Below are positions 2,019 through 26,488 of a stretch of 32,000 nucleotides of DNA, piece by piece (position 1 is the first letter of the stretch; every line of letters starts with the position of its first letter). Under the pieces are notes generated by a model. The model ran no database searches, was not told the DNA's origin, and saw only the letters and a list, made by a program, of their open reading frames with translations. The position numbers were made by a program, and so were the translations under genes. This DNA is from Fibrobacterota bacterium (GTDB lineage: Bacteria > Fibrobacterota > Fibrobacteria > UBA11236), in the NCBI GenBank assembly GCA_028287505.1, contig JAQBPN010000060.1:1-32000 (forward strand), in the 5' to 3' direction.

Positions 2019-3077
2019 ATGGCGGACGCGAAGACGGAAACCGGCGGCAAGAACGAATCGCTCCCCGTATCCACGCTCACCATCGGAGGGCCGACCAAGG
2101 CCGCGGTGATGATGGTGACCTTGGGAGCGGAGGCGTGCGCCCAGATTTTCAAGAGCCTGGACGAGGAAGACGTGGAAATCCTCACCGCGGAAATCGCGCG
2201 TCTGGAAGGCATCACGCCGGAAACGCGGGAACGCGTGCTGGAAGAGTTCCACCAGATGGCGGTGGCCCAGAAATACATCCTCCAGGGCGGCGTGGACTAC
2301 GCGCGGCAGGCGCTGGAAGCGGCCATGGGACCGCGGCGCGCCAAGGAAATCCTGGAAAAGGTCCAAAGCACCATCCGCACCACGGGCTTCAGCCTGTTGC
2401 AGGACGTGGATCCCTCCCAGCTCGTGAACTTCATCCAGAAAGAACATCCCCAGACCATCGCGCTGTTGCTCGCCCATATGGACGCTTCCATGTCGGCTCC
2501 CATCCTGTCGGCGCTGCCGCAGGAATTGCAGGTGGACGTCACCACGCGGCTCGCCACCATGCAGAGCGTTTCGCCCGACGTGCTGGAGCAGGTCGAGGAA
2601 GTGCTGGCCCTGCAGATGAAGAGCCTGTTCGGCGGCAACGTCTCGGAAGTGGGCGGCGTCAAGTTCGTGGCGGAAATGCTCAACCAGGTCGATCGCGGCG
2701 CGGAAAAGAACATCCTGGGCAATCTGGAACGGGAAAACCCGGAACTGGCCACGGAGATCAAGAACCTCATGTTCGTCTTCGAGGACATCATGCTGCTGGA
2801 CGACAAGGGCATCCAACGCATGCTCAAGGAAGTGGATACCAAGGAACTGGCCCTGGCCCTGAAGGGCGCCAGCGATACCGTGGGGGACAAGTTCTTCAAG
2901 AACATGTCCAGCCGCGCCTCCGAGATGATGAAGGAAGACATGTCCTTCATGGGCCCGGTGCGCGTCAAGGACGTGGAAGGCGCCCAGCAGCGCATCGTGG
3001 ATATCGTGCGCCGCCTGGAAGACGACGGGGAGATCATCATCTCCGGCCGCGGCGGCGACGACGAAATAGTGGTTTAG
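2019..3077 (+). CDS. fliG: Flagellar motor switch/rotor protein FliG
   Basis: 352 aa. Motifs KAAVMMVTLGAEACAQIFKSLDEEDVEILTAEIARL, EHPQTIALLLAHM, NLMFVFEDI and GIQRMLKEVDTKELALALKGAS are typical of FliG N, middle and C domains. AAGGA SD; 5-nt gap after fliF. Confidence 0.95.
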   Translation: MADAKTETGGKNESLPVSTLTIGGPTKAAVMMVTLGAEACAQIFKSLDEEDVEILTAEIARLEGITPETRERVLEEFHQMAVAQKYILQGGVDYARQALEAAMGPRRAKEILEKVQSTIRTTGFSLLQDVDPSQLVNFIQKEHPQTIALLLAHMDASMSAPILSALPQELQVDVTTRLATMQSVSPDVLEQVEEVLALQMKSLFGGNVSEVGGVKFVAEMLNQVDRGAEKNILGNLERENPELATEIKNLMFVFEDIMLLDDKGIQRMLKEVDTKELALALKGASDTVGDKFFKNMSSRASEMMKEDMSFMGPVRVKDVEGAQQRIVDIVRRLEDDGEIIISGRGGDDEIVV

Positions 3078-3098: not shown

Positions 3099-3998
3099 AT
3101 GGAAGCCAGATTCGGAATGAAGGCCGGCGGATTGCTCGGCAGGGACAAGAAGGATATTCCTCCCGACGGTCCCGCGCGTGTCGTGAAGCCAGGCGATTGG
3201 GGCGCAGTCCCGGACTCCGGCATGAAGGGCTTTCCCATGACGGCCTTCAACATGCCGGGCCGCGCGCAGCCAAAGCCCACCGAATCGGAAATGGTGATCA
3301 CGGAACTCACCCGGGTCGCCCGCAAGGCCGAAGAGGCAGGCAAGAACTCCGTGCAGAAGGCGGTGCGCGACGGCGAAGCGGCCGCGCAGGCGGCTTTGGC
3401 GCGGGGCAGGGAAGAAGGCATCCGGGAAGGTGAAAGCCGCGCCTGGGAAAAATATCTCAAGGCCCTGGAGGAAATGCGGGCCAACGCCGCCATGGCGCTC
3501 AACGCGCTTTCCGAGGAAAAAGCCTCCCTTTTCCTGGAGTTCGAAGGCCAGGTCCTGGAACTGTTTTCCGCCACCGTCCACAGAGTGTTCGACGGAGTGG
3601 CCAAGGAACATGCCGAGGCCGTGCTGCCCCTGCTCAAGAAGGCCGTGAACGCCTTGGGCCAGGTCACCACCGTGACCCTGAAAGTGAATCCCGCCGACTT
3701 CCGCACCGTGCAGGACAACCAGGATTTCTGGTTGCCCGTGGACGCGGGCATGAAGGACATCCGCGTGGTATCCGACGAGCGCATCGTCAAGGGCGGTTGT
3801 TTCGTGGAATCGGATTCCACCTCCGTGGGAATGCAGGCCGACGAATTGGCCGACCGCATCGACGACGAATTGAAACGGATTTTCGCCGCCAAGGCGCAAG
3901 CCATCAAAGGCCCCGAATCCTCCCCTTCCGCCGAAAACGGCCCGGCGGCCGGGAGCGATCCCGCCTCCGGGACGGATGACGGAGACGCCGCTCCTTGA
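3099..3998 (+). CDS. fliH: Flagellar export ATPase regulator/stator FliH
   Basis: 299 aa. Central Ala/Glu/Arg-rich coiled-coil region and a C-terminal FliH-like block (VTLKVNPADFRTVQDN...VVSDERIVKGGCFVESDSTSVGMQADELADRI). Located between fliG and fliI; AAGGA SD. The exact start is not certain. Confidence 0.8.
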   Translation: MEARFGMKAGGLLGRDKKDIPPDGPARVVKPGDWGAVPDSGMKGFPMTAFNMPGRAQPKPTESEMVITELTRVARKAEEAGKNSVQKAVRDGEAAAQAALARGREEGIREGESRAWEKYLKALEEMRANAAMALNALSEEKASLFLEFEGQVLELFSATVHRVFDGVAKEHAEAVLPLLKKAVNALGQVTTVTLKVNPADFRTVQDNQDFWLPVDAGMKDIRVVSDERIVKGGCFVESDSTSVGMQADELADRIDDELKRIFAAKAQAIKGPESSPSAENGPAAGSDPASGTDDGDAAP

Positions 3999-5317
3999 TC
4001 GAAGATTCCGCGTTCGCTCCCTACGGACAGGCCCTGGACGCGATGTGCCTGGCGCCCATCCGCGCCAAGATCGTCCAGGTGATAGGCCTGGTCCTGGAAA
4101 GCACCGGTCTCTCCGCCAGTCTGGGGGAGATATGCGCCGTATACGACGGTTTGAAGCAGGTGGGCCAGGCCGAAGTGGTGGGCTTCCGCCGCAAGACCAC
4201 CCTCCTGATGGCGCTGGGACAATTGCACGGCCTGAAGCCCGGCATGGAAGTGATGGCCACCGGCCAGGTTTTCTCCGTGCGCGTGGGACCGCAATTGCTC
4301 GGCCGCGTTCTGAACGGGCTGGGCGAGCCCATCGACGGCAAAGGACCCATGCTCCTGCCCTTGCAGGGACGCGTCAACAACGACCCTCCCAATCCCCTGG
4401 ATCGCCGGCGCATTTCGGAACCGATGATTACCGGCATCCGCGCCATCGACGGTTTCCGCACCGTAGGCAAAGGCCAGCGGGTGGGATTGTTCGCGGGATC
4501 CGGGGTGGGGAAGTCCGTGCTGCTGGGCATGATCGCCCGCAATTGCAAGGCCCAGGTGAACGTGATCGCCTTGATCGGCGAACGCGGCCGCGAGGTGAAA
4601 GAGTTCCTGGAAAAGGATTTGGGCGCGGAGGGCCTGTCCCGCTCCGTGGTGGTGGTGGCCACTTCCGATCAACCCGCTTTGATCCGCCTGAAAGCGGCCA
4701 TGGTGGCCACCGCCATCGCCGAGTATTTCCGCGATCTGGGCAGCGACGTGATGCTGATGATGGATTCCTCCACGCGCCTGGCCATGGCCCAGCGTGAAAT
4801 AGGCCTGGCCATCGGAGAACCTCCCTCCACGCGAGGCTATACGCCCTCCGTGTTCGCGATGCTGCCGCGCCTGATGGAACGGGCGGGCATGGGCAAGACC
4901 GGCTCCATCACCGCCCTGTACACCGTGCTGGTGGAAGGCGACGACATGGACGAACCCGTGGCGGACGCGGTCCGATCCGTGCTCGACGGCCACATCGTCC
5001 TTTCGCGCTCCCTGGCGCACCGCAACCACTATCCCGCCATCGACGTGCTCAGGAGCGTCAGCCGTTGCATGTCGGACGTGACTTCCAAGGAACACCGCGC
5101 GGCCACGGGCAAGCTCCTCAACGCCATGGCGGTCTACGCCGACGCCGAAGACATGGTGAACCTGGGGGCCTATGTGCGCGGATCCAATCCGCAATTGGAC
5201 ATGGCCATCGCCATCCATGCGGAGGTGGACAGGTTCCTCATCCAAGGAGTAGAGGACAAGAGCGAACTCAAGACCACCCTCGATAAGGTGGCGGCCATGG
5301 CCGGAGCCATCAAGTGA
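3995..5317 (+). CDS. fliI: Flagellum-specific type III export ATPase FliI
   Basis: 440 aa. Walker A GSGVGKS, Walker B VMLMMDSSTR, F1/T3SS-ATPase pattern (ERGREVKEF, PPSTRGYTPSVF). The TTG start is embedded in the fliH stop (TTGA overlap). Confidence 0.95.
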   Translation: MIEDSAFAPYGQALDAMCLAPIRAKIVQVIGLVLESTGLSASLGEICAVYDGLKQVGQAEVVGFRRKTTLLMALGQLHGLKPGMEVMATGQVFSVRVGPQLLGRVLNGLGEPIDGKGPMLLPLQGRVNNDPPNPLDRRRISEPMITGIRAIDGFRTVGKGQRVGLFAGSGVGKSVLLGMIARNCKAQVNVIALIGERGREVKEFLEKDLGAEGLSRSVVVVATSDQPALIRLKAAMVATAIAEYFRDLGSDVMLMMDSSTRLAMAQREIGLAIGEPPSTRGYTPSVFAMLPRLMERAGMGKTGSITALYTVLVEGDDMDEPVADAVRSVLDGHIVLSRSLAHRNHYPAIDVLRSVSRCMSDVTSKEHRAATGKLLNAMAVYADAEDMVNLGAYVRGSNPQLDMAIAIHAEVDRFLIQGVEDKSELKTTLDKVAAMAGAIK

Positions 5318-5793
5318 GAAAGTTCACATTCGATCTGGAGCAGGTGCTGCGCATGAAGCGTTGGCGCGAAGAAGACGCCAAGAAAGCCCTGGCCGTGGAA
5401 GTCGCGGCCCTGGAACAGCTCAAGTCGCGCTTGCTGGAATTGCAGGGCGATCTGAAGGAGCTCTGGGATGGGGATGCGCAGGGCGACGGTCCGGTCATCG
5501 ATCATCGCGGCCGCCTGGGCATCCTGCAATACGCCCGGCACGTGGGCACCCTGATATCCGGCCAGGAAGGCGACATCTCCGAACAGGGGAAACGCCTCAA
5601 GGAGAAATCCGACCTGCTGCTCAAGGCCATGCAGGAGCGGAAGGTGCTGGAGAAGCTCAAGGAGAGGCGCAAGACCGAGTACCGGGTGGAGCGCAACCGC
5701 TTCGAATACGCGAACCTGGACGAGTCGTCCGCGCGCTATCTGCGCCGGCTGGCGGACCAGGAAAACAGTCTCAAGGAAGAGATTGGACAATGA
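5314..5793 (+). CDS. fliJ: Flagellar export chaperone/stalk protein FliJ
   Basis: 159-aa coiled-coil protein with a FliJ-like pattern (FxFxLEQVLRMKRWREEDAKKALA...RKVLEKLKERRKTEYRVERNRFEYANLDE). The GTG start is embedded in the fliI stop (GTGA). Canonical position after fliI. Confidence 0.75.
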   Translation: MRKFTFDLEQVLRMKRWREEDAKKALAVEVAALEQLKSRLLELQGDLKELWDGDAQGDGPVIDHRGRLGILQYARHVGTLISGQEGDISEQGKRLKEKSDLLLKAMQERKVLEKLKERRKTEYRVERNRFEYANLDESSARYLRRLADQENSLKEEIGQ

Positions 5794-8700
5794 GAACCCG
5801 ATTTTCATTTCCGATCCGCCGCGACCGGTGATGCGCTACGGAAAGCTGGCCGCGGTATTGCTCGTCGCGGGCGCCTGGCTCCCCGTGCGCGCCCTGGTCC
5901 ACAGCGTCAGCGATTTCCGGCAGGACAGTTCCGCCGCCGCCGGGGACAAGTTCCGCCTGGACGGGGGATGGGGCGATTCCCTCATGCTCGATGCCCAGTT
6001 CTTCCGCTACACCACGGCCAAAACCGTCCGCCTGAGCGACGGGCATTTCAACAATGGCGGTTCAGGCGCGGGCCCGATCGTTTCCAACATCGGCCTGTTC
6101 CGGTTCAAGGTGGCCTATGTCGCCTGGAACGGCACCACCCATGACGCCACCAATGGCCCCAACAACCTGGAAGCCCCCAGGGCCAACATCGTCACGCGCA
6201 CGATCGATCTCAGTCCGGATACCGCGGCTACGGACGATGCCGCCGTCATCATCGCCTCCCAGGAAAACGTCACGGAAATCCCTCCGAAAATCTTCTACCT
6301 GAGCGGTCCGCCGGCCCCCACTTATATGAATTTCGCCACCGACGGAAATCAGTTCGCGGCTTACTGGGGATCGGCGACCCCCAGCGGTCCCATCCGGCGG
6401 ACCACGAGCCGGGATCCGCAGATCGGCACCTATGTCATTCCGGCCTCCCCCGTGATCATGGGCGAGCTGGGAAGGATGTCTTCCTGCCTCATTCCCGGGT
6501 CCGGCGGGACCAAGACCATGGTCGCGTACGAAACCAATTTTTCTCCCGGGAAGTTCGAGGTGCGCTGGGAGGACATCACCGCGGGAACCTCCGTCGTTTC
6601 CGTGACATACGTCAGGCCGGTATTGCCGGCGGACTTCGCCGTGGCCGCGGATTCCTCCGGCAACTCGGTGGTGCTGTGGCGGGAGGATGCGGATCTTTAC
6701 GGCGTGGCCTTCAATGCGGCCCACGTGGAAATCATGGCGCCCATCCTCCTCCAGTCCAACGTGGTATTCCAGGAGGATTCCGTTCCTACCATCCAGCATT
6801 TTTACCGGCCTTATTCGGTGGCGGGAATGACGCGGGGAAATTTCCTGATAGCCTATTCAGCCGCGACCGGTGCGACCAGCGACATCTACTCCCGGACCCT
6901 GGCCCTGCCGATTGGGCCGCAGGCATATGCGCTCGGCGGCCAGGTGGCTTTGAGCCCCCCGGGCCCGTTTTTCTGCCTGTTCCCCGATCTGGCGGTCACG
7001 GCGGACCGCGTGACGGCGGCCTGGTACCAGCGTCCGAACGTGGGCGGCCTGCGCAAGATGATGGGAAGCATCTTCCAGAAGGTAGGGACCGGCCTCACCC
7101 TTGCGGGACGCACGGACATCGATATGGCCGGTGAAAACCTCGGCTTCTCGAGTACGGGCCCGAAATGGAACCGCTACCATTGGTTCCACGCCGCCAACGT
7201 GGCGATGGATGCCAAAGGAAACGTGGTGGCGGCCTACGACAGCGGAGCCCATGCCAAGGTGGCGCTGGTCCGCAACACTCCCATCTACTACGATTCGGCC
7301 TCTTTCCTGAGCAAGAGCCTGAAGGTGGAGAATCCGGCCATCCCGGCCTTCGTGTTCAATCCCGCGTCGGACTCGGTCACCTTCCTGCCGTTCCGCCCCA
7401 CCACCACCGACTCCCTGAATACCCACATCCGGATTGCCTTGTCGCCCGACAATACGTTCAGCGGCGCCGGTTCCGCGTACCATCCGCTTCCCGCGGCGCA
7501 GAAGGCCGCAAGCGGTTTCTACCGCTACGGCGTGGATCTGCTCACGGTCAAGACCGGCAATCCCTCCAATACCAACCTCACCACGCCCAAGCTCAAGGCC
7601 CTGGACATAGAGTACAACGTCAAGCCCTTCACTCCCGGAGTCGACTCCATCAAACCGGGCAGCCGGCCCCAATCCGCCTACAATCCCGCCGGTCCCTATC
7701 CTTTGTTGACACGTAAGGACTCCCTCAAACTGGTCTGTTCCGGATTCGACGCCGATGACGCCGGACTGGAGTTCCGGATCTCCCTGGGCGGCACCCTTCT
7801 CAAAGCCGTCGTGGGCACGCGGGTCTCTCCCGGCAACTACACGGCCACCCTCGATTTCCTCCCCCCCGACACCCTGATGAATCCTCTCATCCTGGCGTTG
7901 ACGACCGTCGATCAGGGAGCATGGAGCAGCCGGCCCTTGATCCTGTCCTTCGGATTCCGGAACAGCCCTCCCGCGCAAACCCTGACGGTGTACCGCAACC
8001 GGGGCTGGGATTCCGCATCGGTGTTCCGGCCCTTTGGAGGGGGCGTGGACACCATCTCGCCCGTGAACGGGGGATTGCTGGTGATCCAGGATGGGGACTC
8101 CCTGACCCTCAAGGCCCGGTATGCGGACAGCAACGACAACAGCGTGACCGCCACCTGGCTTCGCAACTCCGTTATCCTGGGAAGCCGTACCCTGCCCGTC
8201 ACGGATTCGGTGGCCTTCCGCTTTTCGCCGGACACCCTGGCGCCGGCCATCGATACCGCCGTGGCCAAGGTGGGGGACAAGGACACCACCGTAACATTCA
8301 GGATACCTGTGCGCCTGAACCATGTGCCCTCGGTCGACTCCGTCTACCATGCGGACTACAAGGGAAAGGATTCCATCCTGAAGGTGGGGCCGTTCGACAA
8401 GGTGAGGAATTTCGCCACGGATACCGGCCTGACCATCCCTCCCGGGCTGTTGACGACTATCGGGGGCGGGTTTTCCGACGTCGATCTGACCGCCGGGGAT
8501 TCCCTTTCCGTCATCTGGCGGGTCTGGAAGCAGCCGCCGCTCTGCGCCAAGGGGAACCTTTCCTGCTACATCAAAACGGATTCGGGGACGGGCCTCACAT
8601 TGTCCCGGGTATTCAGCATCCAGGAGCAATATCTGACCGTGCGGGTCACGGATGCCTTCGGCGCGTTCCGGGAGCGCGGACTTTTCCTGGAATACCCCGT

Positions 8701-10384
8701 CTTGGACACTTCGGGCACGGCCGTGGCCGTCAATTCGCTCAAGCGGGATATCGATTTCGTCATCGGCGCGGAAAAGCACGATACGGCGGTCAAGGCGGAG
8801 ATCCTCAGCCAGGGCACCGCGCCCCTGCTGATCCTTTCCGTGGCCACCAAGAATAACGACCGGAAATGGCTGGACTTCAAACTGGAATGGATCACGGGTT
8901 CGCCGCCCCGGCTGGACAGCGCGCGGTTCTCCGGCGCCACCAACGTGAACGCTCTGGCGGGAGGCAAGACCGTTTCCCTGCCCCCCGGGACCGCCTTGGA
9001 TTTTGATTTCCGTTTTTTCAGCGACTCCTTGCGCGGTGATTCCGTGCTTACGGACACCCTGGTGGTGCTGACCAACGATTTCGTGAATCCGATCCTGAAA
9101 ATCCCTTTCCGCCTGGAACACCGGGATCTCCCCCTGGTCCGCCTGGAGGTGCTCGGGACCCCCGCCGCGGGCCCCCCCGGGGGCTTCAACGCTTCCGGCC
9201 TTCCCAAGCTGGTGCCGGCGCGATCCACGCTCTCCATGGTCTTTTCGGAAACGGTGCGCGTCCCGGACCCGGCCAAGATGTTCCGCGTGTATTCCTATCT
9301 GGATTCGCTCAAGAACCCGGCCGGATTCGAGATCATCCCCGGCGCTTACGAGTACCGTCTTCGCAAGGCGGGGCTGGGAAAGATCGCCGCTGCATCGGAC
9401 TCTCTGGCGGATACCGTGGTCTTCACTCCCAAGTACATCAAGGCTTCCGACTCCCTCAAGGTCATGCCCGGGCCCGGTTTTTTCATCTACCGGGACATAT
9501 TGCACATCCGCCTGTCCAACGCCATCACCGACAAGTCCGGCAACGGCCTGGACCTGCGGCTGGACAAGAAGGTGCGGGCCCCCGGCAGTTTCGACACCGT
9601 GTTCCAGGCGCGGGTGGATACCAGCCTTTTCAGGGTCGTGTCCACGCAGCCGGAAGCGGGCTCCAATGGCTGGAACCCGGAAGGGACCATCAAGATCCGG
9701 TTCAACCGCAAGCTCTCCAAGGGTCCGCCCGCGGGAACGGATTCCCTCACCCTGCTGGCCTTGAACGCCCTGAAGGCCGGGGACAACCGGAGCGTGCACG
9801 TTACCTCCGTCTACAGGCCGGGCAAGACCTATGATTTCCAGTTCCTGTCCCTGGCGGACAATGATTCCTCCCTGGTTTTCAGGACGCGGCCCCTGCTTCC
9901 CTCGCGGGACACGGTGAGCATCTCCCTGTCGGGCGGAATCCTGGACACTTCCGGACTCTCCCTGGACGGCAACGGCGACAAGTTCCCCAATTGGCTGTAC
10001 GACAAGAGGGATACGGTGGATTCCTACGGGTTCACCTTCATCACCACGGACGCGGACTTCTACGTCTTTCCCAATCCATTCCGTTTCGCCGATTCCCGCC
10101 ATCGGGACAAGGGGACCATCACCTTCAAGAACCTGAATTCCCTGCGGGGATACGGGATCGGCAAGGACGTGGTCCTGCGCGTGCATACCATGACCGGGGA
10201 CCTGGTCTACAATTCCAAGACCTCCTCCAAGCAATACGGGCCGGACAACCTGCTCAGCACCAGCCTGGATTGGGACCTGACCAACGACCATGGAAGCGTG
10301 GTGGGCACCGGCGTCTACATCTACACCTTGATGACCGAAGGGAGCAAACTGCTCCACAAGGGCAAGGTCGCCGTAGTCCGGTAA
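5783..10384 (+). CDS. Very large exported protein: N-terminal signal sequence, propeller-like N-terminal region, multiple Ig-like (SbsA/Big_5-type) modules, C-terminal FlgD-Ig-like/T9SS-type sorting domain
   Basis: 1533-aa uninterrupted ORF. TTG 5783 lies 5 nt after AAGGA and overlaps fliJ by 11 nt; the alternative ATG 5831 gives MRYGKLAAVLLVAGAWLPVRALV, a signal peptide. Composition is that of a normal soluble beta-rich protein, unlike the R/G/P-rich shadow ORFs over the same DNA. The C-terminal domain is listed separately. Confidence 0.85.
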   Translation: MDNENPIFISDPPRPVMRYGKLAAVLLVAGAWLPVRALVHSVSDFRQDSSAAAGDKFRLDGGWGDSLMLDAQFFRYTTAKTVRLSDGHFNNGGSGAGPIVSNIGLFRFKVAYVAWNGTTHDATNGPNNLEAPRANIVTRTIDLSPDTAATDDAAVIIASQENVTEIPPKIFYLSGPPAPTYMNFATDGNQFAAYWGSATPSGPIRRTTSRDPQIGTYVIPASPVIMGELGRMSSCLIPGSGGTKTMVAYETNFSPGKFEVRWEDITAGTSVVSVTYVRPVLPADFAVAADSSGNSVVLWREDADLYGVAFNAAHVEIMAPILLQSNVVFQEDSVPTIQHFYRPYSVAGMTRGNFLIAYSAATGATSDIYSRTLALPIGPQAYALGGQVALSPPGPFFCLFPDLAVTADRVTAAWYQRPNVGGLRKMMGSIFQKVGTGLTLAGRTDIDMAGENLGFSSTGPKWNRYHWFHAANVAMDAKGNVVAAYDSGAHAKVALVRNTPIYYDSASFLSKSLKVENPAIPAFVFNPASDSVTFLPFRPTTTDSLNTHIRIALSPDNTFSGAGSAYHPLPAAQKAASGFYRYGVDLLTVKTGNPSNTNLTTPKLKALDIEYNVKPFTPGVDSIKPGSRPQSAYNPAGPYPLLTRKDSLKLVCSGFDADDAGLEFRISLGGTLLKAVVGTRVSPGNYTATLDFLPPDTLMNPLILALTTVDQGAWSSRPLILSFGFRNSPPAQTLTVYRNRGWDSASVFRPFGGGVDTISPVNGGLLVIQDGDSLTLKARYADSNDNSVTATWLRNSVILGSRTLPVTDSVAFRFSPDTLAPAIDTAVAKVGDKDTTVTFRIPVRLNHVPSVDSVYHADYKGKDSILKVGPFDKVRNFATDTGLTIPPGLLTTIGGGFSDVDLTAGDSLSVIWRVWKQPPLCAKGNLSCYIKTDSGTGLTLSRVFSIQEQYLTVRVTDAFGAFRERGLFLEYPVLDTSGTAVAVNSLKRDIDFVIGAEKHDTAVKAEILSQGTAPLLILSVATKNNDRKWLDFKLEWITGSPPRLDSARFSGATNVNALAGGKTVSLPPGTALDFDFRFFSDSLRGDSVLTDTLVVLTNDFVNPILKIPFRLEHRDLPLVRLEVLGTPAAGPPGGFNASGLPKLVPARSTLSMVFSETVRVPDPAKMFRVYSYLDSLKNPAGFEIIPGAYEYRLRKAGLGKIAAASDSLADTVVFTPKYIKASDSLKVMPGPGFFIYRDILHIRLSNAITDKSGNGLDLRLDKKVRAPGSFDTVFQARVDTSLFRVVSTQPEAGSNGWNPEGTIKIRFNRKLSKGPPAGTDSLTLLALNALKAGDNRSVHVTSVYRPGKTYDFQFLSLADNDSSLVFRTRPLLPSRDTVSISLSGGILDTSGLSLDGNGDKFPNWLYDKRDTVDSYGFTFITTDADFYVFPNPFRFADSRHRDKGTITFKNLNSLRGYGIGKDVVLRVHTMTGDLVYNSKTSSKQYGPDNLLSTSLDWDLTNDHGSVVGTGVYIYTLMTEGSKLLHKGKVAVVR
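10058..10381 (+). other. C-terminal FlgD-Ig-like / por_Secre_tail-like (T9SS type A) domain of the giant protein
   Basis: The 108-aa tail FYVFPNPFRF...GTITFKNL...VVLRVHTMTGDLVY...LDWDLTNDHGSVVGTGVYIYTLMTEGSKLLHKGKVAVVR fits the recalled signature (PNPF, a short beta strand, hhhYDhxGxhV, WDGxxxxGxxVxxGVYhYxL, basic end). Not HMM-verified. Confidence 0.7.
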
Positions 10385-10526
10385 TCCCCGAATCCGGGCC
10401 GGGAAGCCGATCCGGTAACGCGCAGGAAAGCGTCCTTCCTCCAAAACCGCGCTTTTGCACCCGGAAATCGGACCGGAATGCGGGAATCCGGTGCAATCAG
10501 GGCCCCTTTTTCCTAATTTGTTCCCC

Positions 10527-13432
<2,906 letters not shown>

Positions 13433-13436
<4 letters not shown>

Positions 13437-14089
13437 ATAGCGTCCTGGACGTGATCGCCGGGCATCCCGGTTTTTTCTCTCTCGAGGGCGTGGACGGCAG
13501 CGGGAAAACCACCCAGCTCGCCCTCCTCGCCGATCGTCTCAGGCAACAAGGCCGGGACGTCCTCACCGTCCGGGAACCGGGCGGCACGCCGGTCTCGGAT
13601 AAAATCCGCCAGTTGATCCTATCTCCCGAAAACCCCATCGTACCTGCGGCGGAGTTGCTGCTTTTCTCGGCTGCGCGCGCGCAATTGGTCGCGGATGTGA
13701 TCGCGCCCGCCCTGCGCGCCGGCAAAATCGTCCTGGCCGATCGCTTCGGCTGGTCCACCCTGGCATATCAGGGGTATGGCCGGGGGATGGATCCCGGCCC
13801 CATCCGGGAGCTTTTCCGGATTGCGTGCGGAGATGTCTGGCCCTTGCACAGTTTCCTGCTGGACTTGCCCGTGACTTCCATGCGCGGCCGCCTGGAAGCC
13901 GGCGGCCGGCCCGCGGATCGCATGGAAAGGGAAGACTCGTCGTTCTTCGATCGGGTCCGGCAAGGATACCTGAGCATCGCCAAGGAAAATCCCGATCGGT
14001 TCACCGTGATCGATGCCGGTCGCGCGCCGGAAGCAGTGCACCAGGCCATCGTGTCCGGGCTTTCGCCCATGCTTCCGGCCTTCCGGTAG
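13433..14089 (+). CDS. tmk: Thymidylate kinase
   Basis: P-loop FFSLEGVDGSGKTT, REPGGT, and a LID-like RMEREDSSFFDRVRQGY. GTG 13433 overlaps the secA stop (GTGA). The track ORF from 12911 is an out-of-frame overlap with secA and was not used. Confidence 0.9.
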
Positions 14090-14119
14090 GCCCCCCGGTA
14101 GAATAGCGCACTCAAGGAT

Positions 14120-14152
14120 CGGACGGTCAGGGACGACCGGACGGTCAGGGAC
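14120..14152. repeat. Direct repeat cggacggtcagggac x2 (18-nt period) at the tmk / TPR-gene convergent junction
   Basis: 14120-14134 and 14138-14152 are identical 15-mers. The second copy contains the stop codon (tca, 14145-14147) of the minus-strand TPR gene; the first copy carries the same triplet 18 nt downstream. Confidence 0.85.
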
Positions 14153-15587
14153 CGTGGGTGTGGAAAGCCAGCAATTCCGCCACCCGCGCCGAGGGCACCG
14201 GCACTCCTTCGATTCCCCCCGACTCGCCCAATCCCTTCCCGCCCTGAGGCGAGTTCCGCTTCCAGGCGAATCGACTCCCGTTTTGTTTCAGGGCGGCGTC
14301 CAAAAGAGACGCGGCATCCCGTTCCTTTCCCGCATGCCAGGCGATGAGGGCCGCATGGCAAAGCAGGTTCGGCTCGCGGCCGCTCCCTTGCAGGGCCGAT
14401 AGGGAATTGCGATAGGCCGCGGCGACGCTTCCCCGCTTGTAGAGGACCCAGGCCAGGCAATCGAAACCTTCCTGGGTGCGCCGCGCCTCCAGGTCGCGCT
14501 CCGCGTATTGGAGCGCTTGGCTCCGGCTGGAATCGGTTTCCGACAACAGAAATGCCAAAGGACGATAGTTCAAGCGTTCACTGATCGGATCTCCGGTGGC
14601 GGCCTTCAAGTAAGCCGCTTTGAGGGCCTGGGCGGCTTCCGGTTGGCCCAGTTCCGTTTGCAGGCGCATGCGGTCGAGCAAAAGCGAAGCATGGCCGCCA
14701 TTGCGGACAGCCGTTTCCAGCAGGCGATCCGCCGCTTCCAGGTTCCCATCCCAGGCATAGGCGAGCCGGGCGATGCCTTCAAGGGCCGCAGGATAACCGG
14801 GCGATCGATCGAGGGCGGCGAGATACTTCCGCAGGGCCGCGCGGGGATTGCCTGCTTTGTCCGCGAGGCCGCCCATTTCCGAGAGATACCAGGCCAAAAC
14901 CGGCGGAGGGAGCGAGGCGGCGATGGCCTCCGAATAGGCGAAGGCGAGCCCGGACTGCGCGGCGGCAAGGTCCCCTTTCCAGGCATGGAGACGGGCCCGC
15001 CGCGTTGCCAGGCCGGAAGATTCCAGGCCCGAAGCGACGCCCGGCCGGGACGCCGTATCGAGTTGCGCTTGCGCCTCCGCGTAGTTCCCGGTGGCGAACA
15101 GAGCATCGAAGAGCGGTAGTCTCCCGGCGTCCTTATCATCCGCGCCGGAAAGCAGCAATCCTTTGCGCGCGTGGGCGAGCGCCTCCGGGAACCGGTGGGC
15201 CGCCAACAGACATGCGGCGTATGCGGAATGGACTTCCGCCCGGGAGGAATCCGCCCGGAGCAGGGATTCATACCGGGACTGCGCCTGGAGCAAATCGGGG
15301 ATGCGGCCCGCGGCCTGGAACCGGGAGAGATAGAGCCGGGCCAATCGGCCTTGGGCCAGGGGATCTTCTCCCTTCCTTTCCAGCAGACGGGCTTCCAGGA
15401 ACCGGATCCCGTCCGCCTCGAAAGGCGGGGCGAGAGCGCTTTTCCCCAGCGCGCGGGCGAGCCTGTCCGGATCGACCACGGCGCCGGGAATGCCGATCCA
15501 GAACAGGGACAGCAGGAACAAGGCCGCCGCTGCGAATCCGCACCCGGCGATCCAGGAAGGCCTGACTGGCGCGCGGGGGATTTTCAT
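14145..15587 (-). CDS. Membrane-anchored tetratricopeptide-repeat (TPR) protein
   Basis: About 480 aa from ATG 15587, which lies 4 nt after the upstream gene's stop (ATG 15641 is an alternative start). N-terminal TM IAGCGFAAAALFLLSLFWIGIPG. The rest is Ala/Leu-rich with repeated TPR-like A..Y..A....G....A...L..AL units. Confidence 0.8.
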   Translation of the reverse strand: MKIPRAPVRPSWIAGCGFAAAALFLLSLFWIGIPGAVVDPDRLARALGKSALAPPFEADGIRFLEARLLERKGEDPLAQGRLARLYLSRFQAAGRIPDLLQAQSRYESLLRADSSRAEVHSAYAACLLAAHRFPEALAHARKGLLLSGADDKDAGRLPLFDALFATGNYAEAQAQLDTASRPGVASGLESSGLATRRARLHAWKGDLAAAQSGLAFAYSEAIAASLPPPVLAWYLSEMGGLADKAGNPRAALRKYLAALDRSPGYPAALEGIARLAYAWDGNLEAADRLLETAVRNGGHASLLLDRMRLQTELGQPEAAQALKAAYLKAATGDPISERLNYRPLAFLLSETDSSRSQALQYAERDLEARRTQEGFDCLAWVLYKRGSVAAAYRNSLSALQGSGREPNLLCHAALIAWHAGKERDAASLLDAALKQNGSRFAWKRNSPQGGKGLGESGGIEGVPVPSARVAELLAFHTHGP

Positions 15588-15591
15588 TCCG

Positions 15592-16104
15592 TCAATGGGG
15601 TCCGGCCAGGAATGGAAACTCCGCGCTGAAGGCGGTATCATTGGCGTTCACGTGATCGCTGTGGAGAGCGGGCAGGGTGGGGCCGACCGCCACCGTCAGG
15701 GCGATGTCCGCCGCGTCATCCTCCAATTTCCGTCCGTCCAGGGCCGCGAAGTCCGACGTCGCCGATCCGAGTTTGGCGGGCAATTCATCGGGCAGCAGCA
15801 GCAAGACCGTCGCCTCCGGATCCGCATTGGCCACGGCCCCCAGCACCGTTTTGAATTGGGCCTTATAGTTCACCAGGTCCGAGTCCGGCCCGCGTTGGTT
15901 GTAGAGGGTTTTGCTGAAACCGGAGACGGTTTTCGGATGGTTGAAAACCGTGTTCAACGCGGGGATGCCCATCCTGTCCACCTGCGTGAAGGACGCATTT
16001 TCGGAATCCGAATCGTTATCGTTGCAGGCCGGGAAAAACACGGGCGTGCATAAGCCGACGGCCGCGGCAAAGGCAAGGGTCGAGACGCGATTGGAAACGT
16101 TCAT
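15592..16104 (-). CDS. DUF4331 C-terminal-half protein with its own export signal
   Basis: 170 aa. Hydrophobic N-terminus STLAFAAAVGLCTPVFFPAC, then QVDRMGIPALNTVF...LLLPDELPAKL...DGRKLEDDAADIALTV...NDTAFSAEFPFLAGP, which matches the C-terminal half of DUF4331 as recalled. AGGAGG SD 6 nt upstream. Confidence 0.8.
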   Translation of the reverse strand: MNVSNRVSTLAFAAAVGLCTPVFFPACNDNDSDSENASFTQVDRMGIPALNTVFNHPKTVSGFSKTLYNQRGPDSDLVNYKAQFKTVLGAVANADPEATVLLLLPDELPAKLGSATSDFAALDGRKLEDDAADIALTVAVGPTLPALHSDHVNANDTAFSAEFPFLAGPH

Positions 16105-16110
16105 GCCGGT

Positions 16111-16116
16111 CCTCCT
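16111..16116 (-). promoter_or_regulatory. Consensus Shine-Dalgarno AGGAGG between the two DUF4331 half-genes
   Basis: The minus strand reads TGA-AGGAGG-ACCGGC-ATG: stop of the upstream half, a perfect SD, a 6-nt spacer, then the start of the downstream half. Confidence 0.75.
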
Positions 16117-16860
16117 TCAATTCTTTTTGCTTGTGGTGGCCCACGTGTAAAAGGCCGCGTCCGCGGCGATGCCCAGTTTCTGGGCCAGCAGGGATTTGGG
16201 CACCTCCACCACGATGGAGAGGATATTGGCCCCTTTGAAATCATCCGTGCCCGGATTGGAGAAGGCGAGGCTCTGCGCCGACGAGTCCCCGACCGGGACT
16301 TTCAAGGCCGCGGAATAGGCCGCGTTCAGGACGCTGGTGAGGCTGGAATCCCCCAGCAGATGCAGGAAAAAGGGATCATCCCGGGGACCCGTGAAGACGG
16401 TAAGGCCGTTTCCCTGGAACACCGTGTTGAATTGGCCGGAGGTGGGGCCCGATGCCAAAAGGACGTTCTTGGCGGTCCCCTTGACCACCGGGGCCTCGGG
16501 TCCCCGCACTTCGGCCGTCTGCGTGGCGCCGGTGCCGTTGAACCGGACCTGGATCACGGCGTCTTCGATGCCGTCCCGTTCCTTGTCGAGCTTGAACTGG
16601 TAGAGTCCGTTGGGATTGAAAAAGGCGGTGGTGGTCGCAGCCCCGGGAGTGAGGAAGGGGGCGACATTCATGACGAAAACCATCGAGTCCGCCCGGGAGA
16701 ATACGTAGAGGTCGGTTATGTCCAGGTTGCCTTCGTCCGTATCGGGAGAGTCCTTGTGGTCGGCGGCAAAGGCGGCGGGAGGCAAGGCCGTGACAAAAAG
16801 GCATAGGCCCAATCGGCACAATACACTCCGGAACTTTCCGACATTTTTTTTCGGGATCAT
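16117..16860 (-). CDS. DUF4331 N-terminal-half protein (secreted)
   Basis: 247 aa from ATG 16860, with AAGGAG 6 nt upstream. Signal peptide ...CLFVTALPPAAFA, then ADHKDSPDTDEGNLDITDLYVF...LYQFKLD...GPRDDPFF...GANILSIVVEVP, which is the DUF4331 N-terminal pattern as recalled. Confidence 0.8.
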   Translation of the reverse strand: MIPKKNVGKFRSVLCRLGLCLFVTALPPAAFAADHKDSPDTDEGNLDITDLYVFSRADSMVFVMNVAPFLTPGAATTTAFFNPNGLYQFKLDKERDGIEDAVIQVRFNGTGATQTAEVRGPEAPVVKGTAKNVLLASGPTSGQFNTVFQGNGLTVFTGPRDDPFFLHLLGDSSLTSVLNAAYSAALKVPVGDSSAQSLAFSNPGTDDFKGANILSIVVEVPKSLLAQKLGIAADAAFYTWATTSKKN

Positions 16861-17318
16861 GAGCAGCTCCTTCGCTTGGAGGTTCCAAAAAATCATTTGC
16901 GCGGCCGCAAGGCAAGGTTTTTTTTGGACTTTTTACGCGCCGAATAACGACCAATAAAAATGGTTATTGCTCCGGATCGCTTTCCGTCCCCCCGTTCCGG
17001 GACCGGGAACCGGAGGGATGGGTTTCCGGGATCGCCGGATCGGTTCGAGACCATTCAAGTAAAACCTAAGGCGGTTCCGGCCGGCTGCGGGTTCGGCTCC
17101 CTTTCCCGGGTTTCGGGGCCGGGACCCCGAAAGCGGCGGAAATCGGCGTTTGCTTTTCCCCCCGGAAAGGGGTTAATCCATCGAAATTTGTACATTCCCT
17201 TGACGGTCGTATCTGGAAAACGGCCGGATCTTTCAAACCGACCGGGTCGCTTTATTCCGGCAGAGATGATAAGATCGGGATTAGGGGGATCGCTCCTCCG
17301 TTTGTGTTAAGGACAAAG

Positions 17319-21476: not shown

Positions 21477-22823
21477 ATGCGCCCAAAACCAACCTCGCCC
21501 GTACCCTGGGGGCAACCCCTCAAATTGCTCCCCTTGCTTGCGTTTTTCGCGGTCGCGGCCGTGCTCCAATCCAAAGGCGAGTTCGAAGGCGATGGGTGGC
21601 GGTATCTCCAGAACGCCCGCAATCTCCTGCACGGTTTTTTCGCTTCCCCGGAAACCCTGATGTTCTGGAACGGTCCCGGATACCCCTTGGTGCTCACTCC
21701 GTTCCTGGCTTTCCACATCCCGCTTCCCCTTGCGCATTTGGCCAATGCCGTGTTCCTGTACCTGGCCGTGGTGCATTTCCAGGGGACGCTCAGGCTGGCC
21801 GGCGTGGAAAAGCGGAGCCTGGCGTACGCTTACGCCATGGCGGGCCTGTTGTTCCTGCATGGGCCGCTCTTGGGAATGATCATGACGGAATCGCTTTCGG
21901 CCTATCTGGTTTGCGGAGCGGCCTACCATTATTGCCGCGCGGCGCGGGAACCGGGATCCCGGCCGCACCTGATCCTGGCCGGGTTACATCTGGGTTACCT
22001 GGCGTTGACCAAGGTCTTCTTCGGATACGTGCTGGAAGTTTCCATTCCCATCGCCCTGGGAGCCTGGCTCTGGGCCCGCGGGACAAACAAGGGGACCGTA
22101 AATGATGGGGCCGGAAATGAAAAGGCCGGGTCAGGGGACGCCGGGCGGACGGCGTGGACGGCGGGAGCGGTCTGCGCCCTGGGGCTGCTGGTCTGCGCGC
22201 CCTACCTGGCCCACACCTGGGCCAAGACGGGCAAGGCCAACCTATGGGGCAATGCCGGCGGGTTCCAGCTTTATTACATGTCCCTGCCGGAAAAGGAATA
22301 CTACGGGGACTGGCTGAACTTCGAAGCGGTGCTGGAGCATCCGGAGTATTTCCGCAACCACGTGGACTTTCTCCGCGAAACCCTCAAATTGGACTTCGTC
22401 TCCCAGGACGGCGTGTTCAAGCAGGCCGCCGTCCGCAACTGCCGGGAGCATCCGGGCAAATGCATCCTCAATTGGCGCGCCAACGTGAACCGCATGGTCT
22501 TCGGTTTTCCCAATACCTATTACCCCGGATCGGGCGCGGACCTGGCGACGGGAAACCGCGCATTCGTGTACGCCTTTCCGTTCGCCCTGTGCCTGCTGCT
22601 TGCCGTGCCGGGCTGGCTGGGACGCCGGACGCTCCCGGCATGGATTCATGCCTGTCTGGCCTTTGCCTGCATTTCCCTGGGAGGCATGTCCCTGGTGTGC
22701 GCCATCCCGCGGCAGGTGTTTCCCTTATTGCCCATGCTGGGGCTGTGGTGCGCGGTGGTAGTGGATAGGACTATCCGGTTCCAGGTGGGCGGGACCGGAG
22801 ACGGGGCAGCGGAGCCCGGTTAG
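21477..22823 (+). CDS. Polytopic membrane protein, GT-C fold glycosyltransferase-like (ArnT/PMT_2-like)
   Basis: 448 aa with about 10 hydrophobic segments. The first extracytoplasmic loop has an acidic motif followed by a helix (EFEGDGWRYLQNARNLLHG), as in the GT-C first loop. The assignment is by pattern only. Confidence 0.55.
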   Translation: MRPKPTSPVPWGQPLKLLPLLAFFAVAAVLQSKGEFEGDGWRYLQNARNLLHGFFASPETLMFWNGPGYPLVLTPFLAFHIPLPLAHLANAVFLYLAVVHFQGTLRLAGVEKRSLAYAYAMAGLLFLHGPLLGMIMTESLSAYLVCGAAYHYCRAAREPGSRPHLILAGLHLGYLALTKVFFGYVLEVSIPIALGAWLWARGTNKGTVNDGAGNEKAGSGDAGRTAWTAGAVCALGLLVCAPYLAHTWAKTGKANLWGNAGGFQLYYMSLPEKEYYGDWLNFEAVLEHPEYFRNHVDFLRETLKLDFVSQDGVFKQAAVRNCREHPGKCILNWRANVNRMVFGFPNTYYPGSGADLATGNRAFVYAFPFALCLLLAVPGWLGRRTLPAWIHACLAFACISLGGMSLVCAIPRQVFPLLPMLGLWCAVVVDRTIRFQVGGTGDGAAEPG

Positions 22824-22863
22824 GGCCCGGGGCCCGAAGCAGGCCCTTCCGGGAATTCGGATT

Positions 22864-23046
22864 TCAGGCTTGGATATCGATTTTGCCGCCCACGCCGGGA
22901 GGGCTGGGAGGCGGCGCGGGTGGGGGCAGGGCCGCCAGCAACTGCGCGCTCTGCTGCTTCATCAGGTCTTGGGATTTTTTAAGCATGGCCACATCAATGG
23001 CCGAATCACCGCTCTGGGCACCGCTGACTGCTGCTATTCCGTCCAT
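22864..23046 (-). CDS. YjfB-like small putative motility protein
   Basis: 60 aa from ATG 23046: MDGIAAVSGAQSGDSAIDVAMLKKSQDLMKQQSAQLLAAL...GVGGKIDIQA. This fits the YjfB_motility pattern (MDI..ls...sq.q.....v.vmKKa.d.q......ll..l....G..iDi.A). Upstream in-frame starts at 23058 and 23070 are possible. Confidence 0.6.
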   Translation of the reverse strand: MDGIAAVSGAQSGDSAIDVAMLKKSQDLMKQQSAQLLAALPPPAPPPSPPGVGGKIDIQA

Positions 23047-23146
23047 GGTTGAAAGCATAAAGGGTGGCACCTCCGGAAGGCAAGAACCCGTGTCCCGACC
23101 GGGCCCCGGCGGCTGGATTTAGCGGTCCAGTTTGTACATTTGAGGC

Positions 23147-24472: not shown

Positions 24473-25423
24473 ATGACAAAATCCTTCTGCTTCCTATCGA
24501 AAAAAGGCGGAGTGGGGAAGACCACTTTTTCCCTCAACTGCGCCCATGCCCTGGCTTTCTCCCGCTTCCGCACCCTGCTGGTGGACATGGACGGCCAGGC
24601 CAATCTCACCCGGCATCTGCTCAAGGGAGCCGGAAACTCCGGCGACGCCCCGACCGCGCCCGGAAGCGCGGTCCCGGCCGGCTATCCCGACATCTCCCAG
24701 GTTCTGCTCAAGCGCTGCGCTCCCCACGAGGCCATCCTGACCACCGGCTACGAAAACCTGGATCTGTTGGCCGGAAGCACCAGCCTGGACGATCTGCCCA
24801 TCCTGGACGCAAGGCTCATCCGCGAGCCGGCCCGCTTCAAGCTCATCCTGCAGGAGCTGGCCCCGGATTATGATTTCATCCTGGTCGACTGTCCGCCCAT
24901 CGTCAACTGGCTCACGCGCATGGTGCTGTTCGCGGTGGAGGGCGTGATCGTCCCCATCCAGGCGGAGCCGTACGCGATGCAGGGCCTGCAGGATCTGGTT
25001 CCCATGCTGGACAAGATGACGGCGACGGCGCAGTTGTACAAGATCGTGGTCAACATGTACCGGTCCAACACGCAGTTGCACCAGAACATCCTCAGGGAAA
25101 TCAGCGAGGAATTCCCCGGCCGCATCGCCAAGCAGACCATCCGCCAGACCATCCAGCTGGCCGAGGCGGCCAGGGAAGGCTTGAGCATTTTCGAATACGC
25201 CCCGGCTTCCATCGGCGCCTTGGATCTCTATGCCTTATGCTGGGAGCTGTTCGAGCTTTCGCCGGAAAAGGTGAAGATGAACGTGCAGGCGCGGGGCGAA
25301 GCCGCCGGAGCGCCCGCAATCGCGCCCGTGGAAGCCGAGCCGCCCTTTTCCAGCCCAACCTTGGAACCCATCCAGGAAGCACCCGCGCATCGGGAAACCG
25401 CGGCGGCAGGGGATTCCGCTTAA
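24473..25423 (+). CDS. Orphan ParA/Soj-family (deviant Walker A) ATPase with Ala/Pro-rich C-terminal extension
   Basis: 316 aa. FLSKKGGVGKTTFSLNCAHALA (KGGxxGKT), LLVDMDGQANLT and DFILVDCPP. Starts 12 nt after the murA stop. No parB-like gene in the window. Confidence 0.88.
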   Translation: MTKSFCFLSKKGGVGKTTFSLNCAHALAFSRFRTLLVDMDGQANLTRHLLKGAGNSGDAPTAPGSAVPAGYPDISQVLLKRCAPHEAILTTGYENLDLLAGSTSLDDLPILDARLIREPARFKLILQELAPDYDFILVDCPPIVNWLTRMVLFAVEGVIVPIQAEPYAMQGLQDLVPMLDKMTATAQLYKIVVNMYRSNTQLHQNILREISEEFPGRIAKQTIRQTIQLAEAAREGLSIFEYAPASIGALDLYALCWELFELSPEKVKMNVQARGEAAGAPAIAPVEAEPPFSSPTLEPIQEAPAHRETAAAGDSA

Positions 25424-26459: not shown

Positions 26460-26488
26460 GATGAGCTACCTATTATGCAGGGGTGTTG

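Follow-up and report, generated by a model that had tools for sequence, protein, structure and literature searches.

What is a giant protein with an export signal doing directly behind fliJ in a flagellar operon? The question is raised by a stretch of 32,000 nucleotides (the window; contig JAQBPN010000060.1 of assembly GCA_028287505.1) from a Fibrobacteres metagenome-assembled genome (MAG), in which the genes fliF to fliJ are followed by an open reading frame (ORF) whose product shows 100% identity to P0001, annotated as 'hypothetical protein JWO30_2277 [Fibrobacteres bacterium]'. An initial sequence-only reading of the window had proposed that this giant ORF encodes a flagellum-associated envelope or surface component, and had set against it the null hypothesis of an unrelated surface protein that hitch-hiked into the operon. 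The analysis described here leaves the former much stronger relative to the latter, owing to a linkage with fliJ that survives rearrangement, and suggests that the giant protein is probably a new, lineage-specific partner of the flagellum. The flagellar genes and secA of the window were assigned by Pfam, and the region is laid out as follows.

Positions 427-2013, + strand: fliF (Pfam YscJ_FliF).
Positions 2019-3077, + strand: fliG (Pfam FliG_N/M/C).
Positions 3099-3998, + strand: fliH (Pfam FliH).
Positions 3995-5317, + strand: fliI (Pfam ATP-synt_ab and T3SS_ATPase_C).
Positions 5314-5793, + strand: fliJ (Pfam FliJ).
Positions 5794-5830, + strand: junction of 37 nt between fliJ and the giant ORF; scanned, no terminator-like hairpin found.
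Positions 5831-10384, + strand: coding sequence of the 1,517-aa giant protein, stop codon at 10382-10384, supported by homologues.
Positions 10385-10526, + strand: spacer of 142 nt between the giant ORF and secA; scanned, no terminator-like site found.
Positions 10527-13436, + strand: secA (Pfam SecA domains), start read as ATG 10527 (MIVNAILAKLF).
Positions 13457-13471: terminator-like hairpin with a T-run, 3′ of secA (terminator scan).

The tight packing of fliF to fliJ described in the sequence-only reading was confirmed, with all five genes matching their Pfam families, as was the long + strand ORF ending at 10384 and followed by secA. That reading had also asked whether a terminator separates fliJ from the giant ORF and whether relatives keep the two genes together, and had regarded homologues never linked to flagellar genes elsewhere as grounds for abandoning a flagellar interpretation. 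The terminator scan gave no site between fliJ and the giant ORF, and none between the giant ORF and secA. A sigma-70 promoter scan returned 0 sites, a result that is uninformative for promoters of the Fibrobacteres-Chlorobi-Bacteroidetes (FCB) group.

The genomic context of the giant gene was gathered by four routes: look-ups of close homologues, a scan of GTDB species representatives, look-ups started from FliJ, and look-ups of distant homologues together with a metagenome scan that, using the distant-homologue alignment, led to 43 loci. Approximately 20 kb was accessible per genome. Every homologue with upstream DNA directly follows a flagellar gene, and it is always the same one: fliJ lies immediately 5′ of the giant gene in 42/42 distinct loci that hold upstream DNA, drawn from two classes of Fibrobacterota. 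The fragmentary locus L030 keeps the FliJ C-terminus upstream of the giant gene, and in L071 a fliJ missed by tblastn was found by Pfam. The look-ups started from FliJ provide an unbiased check of the linkage, as they do not start from the giant ORF; here a gene of ~1,530 aa, or its truncated start, followed fliJ in 3/3 cases, and the FliJ search reached no out-group.

The two genes are also closely spaced. Measured from the fliJ stop to the start of the giant gene, distances resting on approximate start calls at 40 distinct loci had a median of -4 nt, with overlaps at 22/40 loci and gaps of ≤60 nt at 39/40. The 37-nt spacer of the window recurs in L001, L006, L021 and L027, while true overlaps between fliJ and the giant ORF are present in other lineages and absent from the window.

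The surroundings of the pair vary. Relatives share the fliF-fliJ order, and their operon opens further upstream with flgB, flgC, an unknown gene of ~120 aa and fliE. Downstream of the giant gene the window clade carries secA, an S41 peptidase and EPSP synthase, and two deep branches (L022, L016) carry a small unknown ORF (100-104 aa) and a gene of the ExbB/MotA family. In a group of loci with low guanine-cytosine (GC) content, which probably takes in the Chitinispirillaceae clusters, the downstream genes are unrelated and mostly convergent, so the giant ORF ends the operon there. The 5.4 kb upstream of the pair in L071 and L073 contain no fliF-fliI and instead hold a prepilin peptidase, plus a PD-(D/E)XK transposase in L071; fliJ still overlaps the giant ORF in these loci, by 47 and 4 nt, respectively. 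Across these loci, fliJ is the only invariant neighbour of the giant gene. A functional tie to secA was considered and rejected, as this adjacency is absent in many lineages.

How widely, and how faithfully, is the giant protein inherited? A word-indexed search returned 32 full-length homologues (34-68% identity, 1,513-1,570 aa), and a word-indexed profile search returned the same 32 proteins. The named ones among them are all MAGs of Fibrobacterota/Fibrobacteria, a distribution that fits the published loss of flagella in the Fibrobacteraceae (PMC4704652). An exhaustive HMMER profile search with aa 21-1130 (tail excluded) against 1.84 billion cluster representatives gave 145 matches at E≤1e-3 and 101 at E≤1e-10, most of them colinear and 1,500-1,700 aa long; the weakest matches covered propeller blades only. 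Only two distant clusters bear taxon names, one reading 'Chitinispirillaceae bacterium' and the other, a MAG, 'Fibrobacter sp.'. The Chitinispirillaceae are placed in the class Chitinispirillia of the Fibrobacterota, so that the named taxa, with Fibrobacteria counted in, span two classes. Identity to the window protein tracks identity of FliI (Spearman 0.96, n=19), indicating vertical co-inheritance, and the giant protein changes at a rate similar to FliH and FliJ. With its colinear family, near-fixed length, almost complete lack of indels and non-repetitive sequence, the giant gene behaves as a core gene.

The more than 100 full-length homologues establish that the giant ORF is a real gene and no artefact of GC content. 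On the opposite strand, a 1,351-aa antisense ORF (window 6857-10912, - strand) overlaps the giant gene and lacks homologue support; it is the usual long-antisense-ORF artefact of 62% GC coding DNA.

The start of the giant gene had been placed at TTG 5783, giving an 11-nt overlap with fliJ. The reading frame has no stop from 5555 onwards and offers no possible start before TTG 5783, but this assignment did not hold: orthologue starts align to ATG 5831, 37 nt past fliJ. From this conserved start the N-terminus of the window protein reads MRYGK-LAAVLLVAGAWLPV-RA↓LV, where the arrow marks the predicted cleavage site. In orthologues with an unambiguous start, the ORF opens just before a signal peptide that ends A-x-A↓(V/L)xHSV(T/D)DFR. 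Because orthologue N-termini begin just before the hydrophobic core, the protein is taken to be 1,517 aa long from ATG 5831. The predicted signal peptide is cut after V-R-A, a site read from the sequence, and the computed composition of the mature form corresponds to ~1,496 aa, 161 kDa and an isoelectric point (pI) of 8.8. The hydrophobic N-terminal signal seen in the sequence-only reading is therefore conserved among orthologues; its position is maintained in nearly all of 41 loci, and distant homologues (23-28% identity) also open with a hydrophobic signal-like segment.

The architecture of the remainder was examined using AlphaFold2 (AF2), run in two halves on a 27-sequence alignment, together with profile and structure comparisons. 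T9SS CTD denotes the C-terminal domain (CTD) recognised by the secretion system of type IX (T9SS), and Ig denotes immunoglobulin.

Positions 5831-5893, + strand: Sec-type signal peptide, aa 1-21 (n-region MRYGK, 14-residue hydrophobic core, A-x-A-type c-region).
Positions 5894-7330, + strand: beta-propeller head, aa ~22-500 (AF2; ~29 strands, roughly 7 blades).
Positions 7343-9181, + strand: approximately five unique Ig-like beta-sandwich domains, aa ~505-1117 (AF2, Foldseek).
Positions 9182-9616, + strand: possible first Big_5/SbsA-like unit, aa 1118-1262 (hhalign to the next unit 49%; FSETV and D..GN.LD motifs read).
Positions 9617-9955, + strand: Big_5 (PF13205) Ig-like domain, aa 1263-1375 (Pfam).
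Positions 10028-10381, + strand: C-terminal beta-sandwich of T9SS CTD type, aa 1400-1517, ending ...KGKVAVVR (profile scans, AF2).

The N-terminal 800 residues were modelled with a predicted local distance difference test score (pLDDT) of 82, with the propeller mostly at 85-95, and Foldseek retrieved propellers for it; the beta-propeller proposed from strand motifs in the N-terminal ~500 aa is thereby borne out. The PDB matches were to generic propellers only (sialidases, GH43/GH32 enzymes and lectins; template-modelling score 0.5-0.6, 7-13% identity). The head is the least conserved part of the family, its first 250 residues do not align across distant members, and no residue of the propeller is invariant across those members. 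Judged from sequence, neither the sialidase Arg triad with Tyr/Glu nor the GH43 acid triad is conserved among those members, and the likeness to these enzymes lies at the level of the fold. A conserved glycosidase or sialidase was rejected because the propeller lacks residues conserved across the family, and from its sequence a conserved enzymatic function is unlikely for the giant protein.

Behind the propeller, the whole protein comprises about eight non-repetitive Ig-like sandwiches plus the C-terminal sandwich. The C-terminal 758 residues were modelled with a pLDDT of 72, and the top Foldseek matches of this half were strings of Ig domains (alpha-2-macroglobulin, PorU, PrgB). The series of Ig-like modules in the sequence-only reading stands, but only one of its two Big_5-like units does. 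Residues 1263-1375 matched Big_5 with 26.6 bits against a cut-off of 23.6 when scanned as a fragment (20.4 bits when the whole protein was scanned), and the domain was matched in 25/27 orthologues at E≤0.1; aa 1118-1262 had no Pfam match and were related to the Big_5 domain only by a weak hhalign match (probability 49%). This was the sole related pair that hhalign detected between domains of the protein. The stalk is a string of unique domains and no repeat protein, and it is better conserved than the head. A repetitive adhesin was rejected on the grounds that the domains are not mutual repeats and that the length is nearly fixed. A profile of the whole protein found no match among PDB sequences, and the body (aa 22-1262) matched no Pfam, NCBIfam or PDB family; these residues, ~85% of the length, represent a protein family without an existing model.

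The tail had been described as carrying a signature shared by T9SS sorting domains and the Ig-like domain of FlgD. The last 125 residues of 15 orthologues, taken separately, were scanned against both kinds of model. The PorZ CTD (best 1.5e-9) and the PorU CTD each matched 15/15 tails, TIGR04183 (Por_Secre_tail) matched 14/15 (best 5.7e-5), CHU_C 11/15 and PF18962 3/15. FlgD_ig matched 8/15 (best 1.9e-4) and the FlgD NCBIfam models 3-4/15. Thus the T9SS half of the description was upheld, at sub-threshold level, while the FlgD half was not, as T9SS CTDs match better by several orders of magnitude. When the whole window protein was scanned, NCBIfam gave weak tail matches to the PorZ and PorU C-terminal domains; there was no Pfam match to the tail, including PF18962 and PF13860. 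A tail profile compared with PDB sequences found PorZ (5m11, E 0.012) and PorU (6za2, E 0.13), and 6za2 was also among the top Foldseek matches of the entire C-terminal half.

The position and the residues of the tail are consistent with this assignment. The tail domain occupies the extreme C-terminus, up to the stop codon, and the protein also bears a conserved N-terminal signal peptide; this combination marks CTD cargo. AF2 placed eight strands over aa 1399-1515 (pLDDT 50-90). Recognisable in the tail alignment are FY(V/T)FPNP(F/Y)(R/K), a Gly-Asp-Leu that hardly varies and precedes strand four, W-D/W...N..G..V(G/A)(T/S)G.Y.Y, and, at the end, KGK(V/L/M)x(V/I)(V/I)(R/H); G64/D65/L66 and K118/K120 of alignment A4 are invariant or nearly so. 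The tail stays among the best-conserved segments when overall identity falls to 23%. T9SS CTDs are seven-stranded Ig-like beta-sandwiches in which a Gly at the start of beta4 and a Lys of the last strand matter for function (PMC11285876), and the conserved Gly and Lys of the tail correspond to these two functional motifs. The literature reports Por/T9SS sorting domains for Fibrobacter succinogenes (PMC6851124) and for Chitinispirillum alkaliphilum, which is flagellated (PMC4814513). Taken together, the tail appears to be a T9SS-type CTD that has diverged from the curated models, and its likeness to FlgD_ig would reflect general similarity within the sandwich family with no specific tie to the hook cap. 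A relative of FlgD was rejected: FlgD, of ~140-250 aa, leaves by the flagellar type III system without a Sec signal, whereas the giant protein carries a Sec signal, lacks the N-terminal domain of FlgD and is 1,517 aa long.

A CTD hidden Markov model (HMM) run over the window and 25 loci found no other CTD-bearing ORF except two giant proteins of other phyla, L024:833-10264 (3,144 aa) and L025:2-4741 (1,580 aa), which end in a CTD-like tail (E ~2e-7 to the CTD HMM). Their source MAGs bear the labels 'bacterium' and 'Candidatus Dependentiae'; one would not expect a T9SS-like tail in a Dependentiae bin, and a binning error may be the cause.

What, then, might the giant protein do? According to the model that we propose, the giant ORF would be the last gene of an early flagellar operon, flgB-flgC-x-fliE-fliF-fliG-fliH-fliI-fliJ, in flagellated Fibrobacterota. 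It would be transcribed with fliJ and translated directly behind it, at a distance of 37 nt in the window and through ATGA-type overlaps in other lineages; co-transcription is thus proposed throughout and translational coupling is inferred for many lineages. The product would cross the inner membrane through Sec by means of its cleavable signal peptide, and then the outer membrane via a T9SS recognising the C-terminal beta-sandwich. This would place a ~160-kDa protein at the outer face of the envelope, its propeller head carried by a stalk of some eight unique Ig-like domains, where it may act at or around the site at which the flagellum leaves the cell. FliJ is cytoplasmic, so its pairing with the giant gene cannot reflect direct contact; rather, the linkage would keep synthesis of the giant protein under the same control as that of the export-apparatus genes.

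Our tentative preference is for an extracytoplasmic accessory structure or assembly factor dedicated to the flagellum, which would leave the cell first through Sec and then through T9SS. A flagellar role is suggested because the wiring to fliJ has persisted since before two classes of the phylum diverged, and the core-gene behaviour, the conservation of the stalk over the head and the placement with early genes point in the same direction. A narrower version, in which the protein reaches its place via T9SS and is itself part of the structure or assembly of the flagellum, perhaps as an outer-membrane-proximal ring, a collar or a sheath-like array surrounding the exit of the filament, would go further than we consider likely.

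Several observations weigh against this favoured reading. The named homologues come from the Fibrobacterota only, so shared ancestry explains part of the conservation, and the linkage to fliJ is one of co-expression or shared inheritance only. The variability of the head, especially of the first 250 aa, would suit a binding head that faces the environment better than it suits a part of the motor. The tail of the window protein reaches none of the curated cut-offs (for TIGR04183, 17.6 bits against 23), though the sub-threshold matches are consistent over 15 orthologues. To our knowledge, T9SS cargoes are enzymes, adhesins or parts of the T9SS itself, and never flagellar parts. Finally, there is no obvious vacant structural slot for the giant protein, because genes for the L-ring, P-ring, hook and hook cap exist in relatives: flagellated Fibrobacteres carry FlgD, FlgE, FlgH, FlgI, FlgA and in some cases FliK, and Fibrobacteraceae carry none of these (PMC4704652, supplementary table). 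The same genes dispose of the suggestion that the giant ORF stands in for fliK-flgD-flgE, whose usual place it occupies; flgD, flgE, flgH and flgI are all present in flagellated relatives, and a replacement for fliK/flgD/flgE or for the L and P rings was accordingly rejected (PMC4704652).

The alternative that survives best is a flagellum-co-regulated surface adhesin or ligand-binding protein, likewise exported by Sec and T9SS, whose linkage to fliJ would be purely regulatory and with which a swimming cell could bind insoluble polymer (cellulose, chitin) on arrival. Propeller head, Ig stalk and CTD together form an architecture typical of adhesins and binding proteins that use T9SS; the head varies more than any other part and lacks a conserved catalytic constellation, and the mature protein is basic (pI 8.8). 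Moreover, the Fibrobacterota are particle-attached polymer degraders, and cells of Chitinispirillum attach to chitin in early growth and come off it later (PMC4814513). However, adhesins usually vary in repeat number, duplicate and get lost, and they rarely stay pinned to one gene, whereas the giant protein is non-repetitive, of near-fixed length and always paired with fliJ. Its stalk is also more conserved than its head, and its gene belongs with the early genes of the basal body and stands apart from the late ones for flagellin or chemotaxis. On balance we regard an adhesin as possible but somewhat unlikely.

Could the pair be a historical accident? An unrelated secreted protein with no link to motility might have landed behind fliJ in the ancestor of the phylum and been kept there since its translation initiation needs the fliJ stop region. 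All homologues do fall in one phylum, and gene order is conservative enough in the window clade that secA, the S41 peptidase and EPSP synthase are syntenic as well. Other lineages, however, reshuffle everything around the pair and leave it unbroken; it is retained in 42/42 loci and co-diverges with FliI, while a 4.5-kb passenger that the cell could do without should have been lost or moved at least once. Such an accident is improbable. Still less probable is a periplasmic scaffold that uses the C-terminal sandwich as a retained structural or anchoring domain and decorates the motor in the manner of PflA/PflB, FlgT or the spirochaete collar: the tail is below curated T9SS cut-offs and among the best-conserved parts, and other phyla have well-known Sec-dependent motor scaffolds in the periplasm, but the tail has the position, length, Gly motif and end motif (K-x-K...VVR) of a T9SS CTD, the giant proteins of L024 and L025 from other phyla carry the same kind of tail at the extreme C-terminus, and PorZ and PorU are themselves T9SS-secreted.

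Flagellar motors are elaborated differently by lineage, and the added parts have mostly been found by cryo-electron tomography in a few culturable phyla. Here, comparative genomics alone picks out one unannotated 160-kDa secreted protein joined to fliJ. Should the narrower version hold, T9SS and flagellar biogenesis would be functionally connected for the first time, and the flagellum would gain a new class of accessory structure. If the protein is a flagellar part, a surface protein delivered by Sec and T9SS could belong to a flagellar programme, and work on the cultured, flagellated Chitinispirillum alkaliphilum and Chitinivibrio alkaliphilus would have a concrete target. If the protein is instead a co-regulated adhesin, swimming would be hard-wired to attachment at the genetic level, in a phylum whose members degrade polymers while attached to particles. 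No paper in the literature searched names fliJ alongside T9SS, and none describes Fibrobacterota motors.

Several neighbouring genes were observed alongside the giant gene. The interval between flgC and fliE in relatives holds a conserved gene (L001:3528-3890, L003:3736-4128, L026:1180-1560, L028:1166-1519) that is shorter (81-86 aa) at L031:1897-2142 and L032:1767-2027; it had no Pfam or NCBIfam match and could encode another lineage-specific basal-body protein. A small gene of the YjfB_motility family adjoins EPSP synthase in relatives (L001:24066-24251, L003:21659-21964, L005:14110-14307), ~10 kb downstream of the flagellar operon, and a window counterpart, not located, would be expected near 22850-23140. 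At L022:15390-19875, before secA, lie genes for ExbB, an ExbB-ExbD fusion, ExbD, TonB and a weakly FliL-like protein (NCBIfam 2.6e-5); L016:14285-15071 stops inside the first ExbB gene. In the one divergent lineage formed by L071:3418-5880 and L073:4526-5906, fliJ is detached from fliF-fliI and follows a prepilin peptidase (A24), and a 342-360-aa gene without a family match overlaps the stop of the giant ORF by 4 nt and precedes secA.

Within the window, a - strand block at 13408-16896 separates secA from the S41 peptidase and encodes a tetratricopeptide repeat protein (14145-15641), a DUF4331 protein (16117-16896) and two unknown ORFs. It looks like a local insertion or replacement, because relatives have a thymidylate kinase there. 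Further downstream are a ParA/MinD-type ATPase (24473-25423) and three ORFs of 343-448 aa without a Pfam or NCBIfam match, at 21477-22823 (+), 25428-26459 (-) and 26483-27658 (+).

How does the giant protein compare with systems that are already known? Among flagellar families, Pfam and NCBIfam gave only weak, sub-threshold matches of FlgD models on the tails of a few orthologues. The Ig-like domain of FlgD (PF13860) has weak similarity to the tail, but the giant protein has no FlgD N-terminal domain and carries a Sec signal peptide. FlgD_ig is known to give misleading matches at the C-terminal ends of FCB proteins that are secreted. The 'flgD domain' of a fibro-slime protein (PMC4704652) may be one example.

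In several other lineages, Sec-dependent flagellar accessories (FlgT/FlgO/FlgP, PflA/PflB and the spirochaete collar) act outside the cytoplasm and are encoded or co-regulated with flagellar genes. The giant protein would be a functional analogue of Vibrio FlgT/FlgO/FlgP, Campylobacter PflA/PflB/FlgP and the spirochaete collar in being lineage-specific, signal-peptide-bearing, flagellar-linked and extracytoplasmic. It differs from them in its much greater size and in a T9SS-type tail that implies an outer-surface destination; by sequence it belongs to none of the described accessory families (FlgT, FlgP, FlgO, PflA/B, MotX/Y, FliL, collar proteins).

PorZ of P. gingivalis (PG1604, PDB 5m11) is the best sequence match of the tail, and both proteins pair a propeller with a CTD, which in PorZ is not cleaved. 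PorZ differs in its length of 776 aa, its two propellers and its lack of an Ig stalk, and it is part of the T9SS attachment complex with no flagellar operon partner. No similarity to PorZ was found outside the tail, and 5m11 was absent among the 50 propeller matches listed. The giant protein is closest in kind to T9SS cargo such as P. gingivalis RgpB and HBP35, F. johnsoniae SprB and the CTD cellulases of F. succinogenes, with which it shares a Sec signal peptide, a modular beta-rich body and a terminal beta-sandwich of ~90-110 aa with a Gly before beta4 and a basic last strand. It departs from these cargoes in a tail below curated cut-offs, a body of no described family and a gene placed invariably in a flagellar operon. 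As a modular surface protein of the Sec/T9SS type it is of a known kind; what is new is its obligatory, phylum-wide genetic coupling to fliJ.

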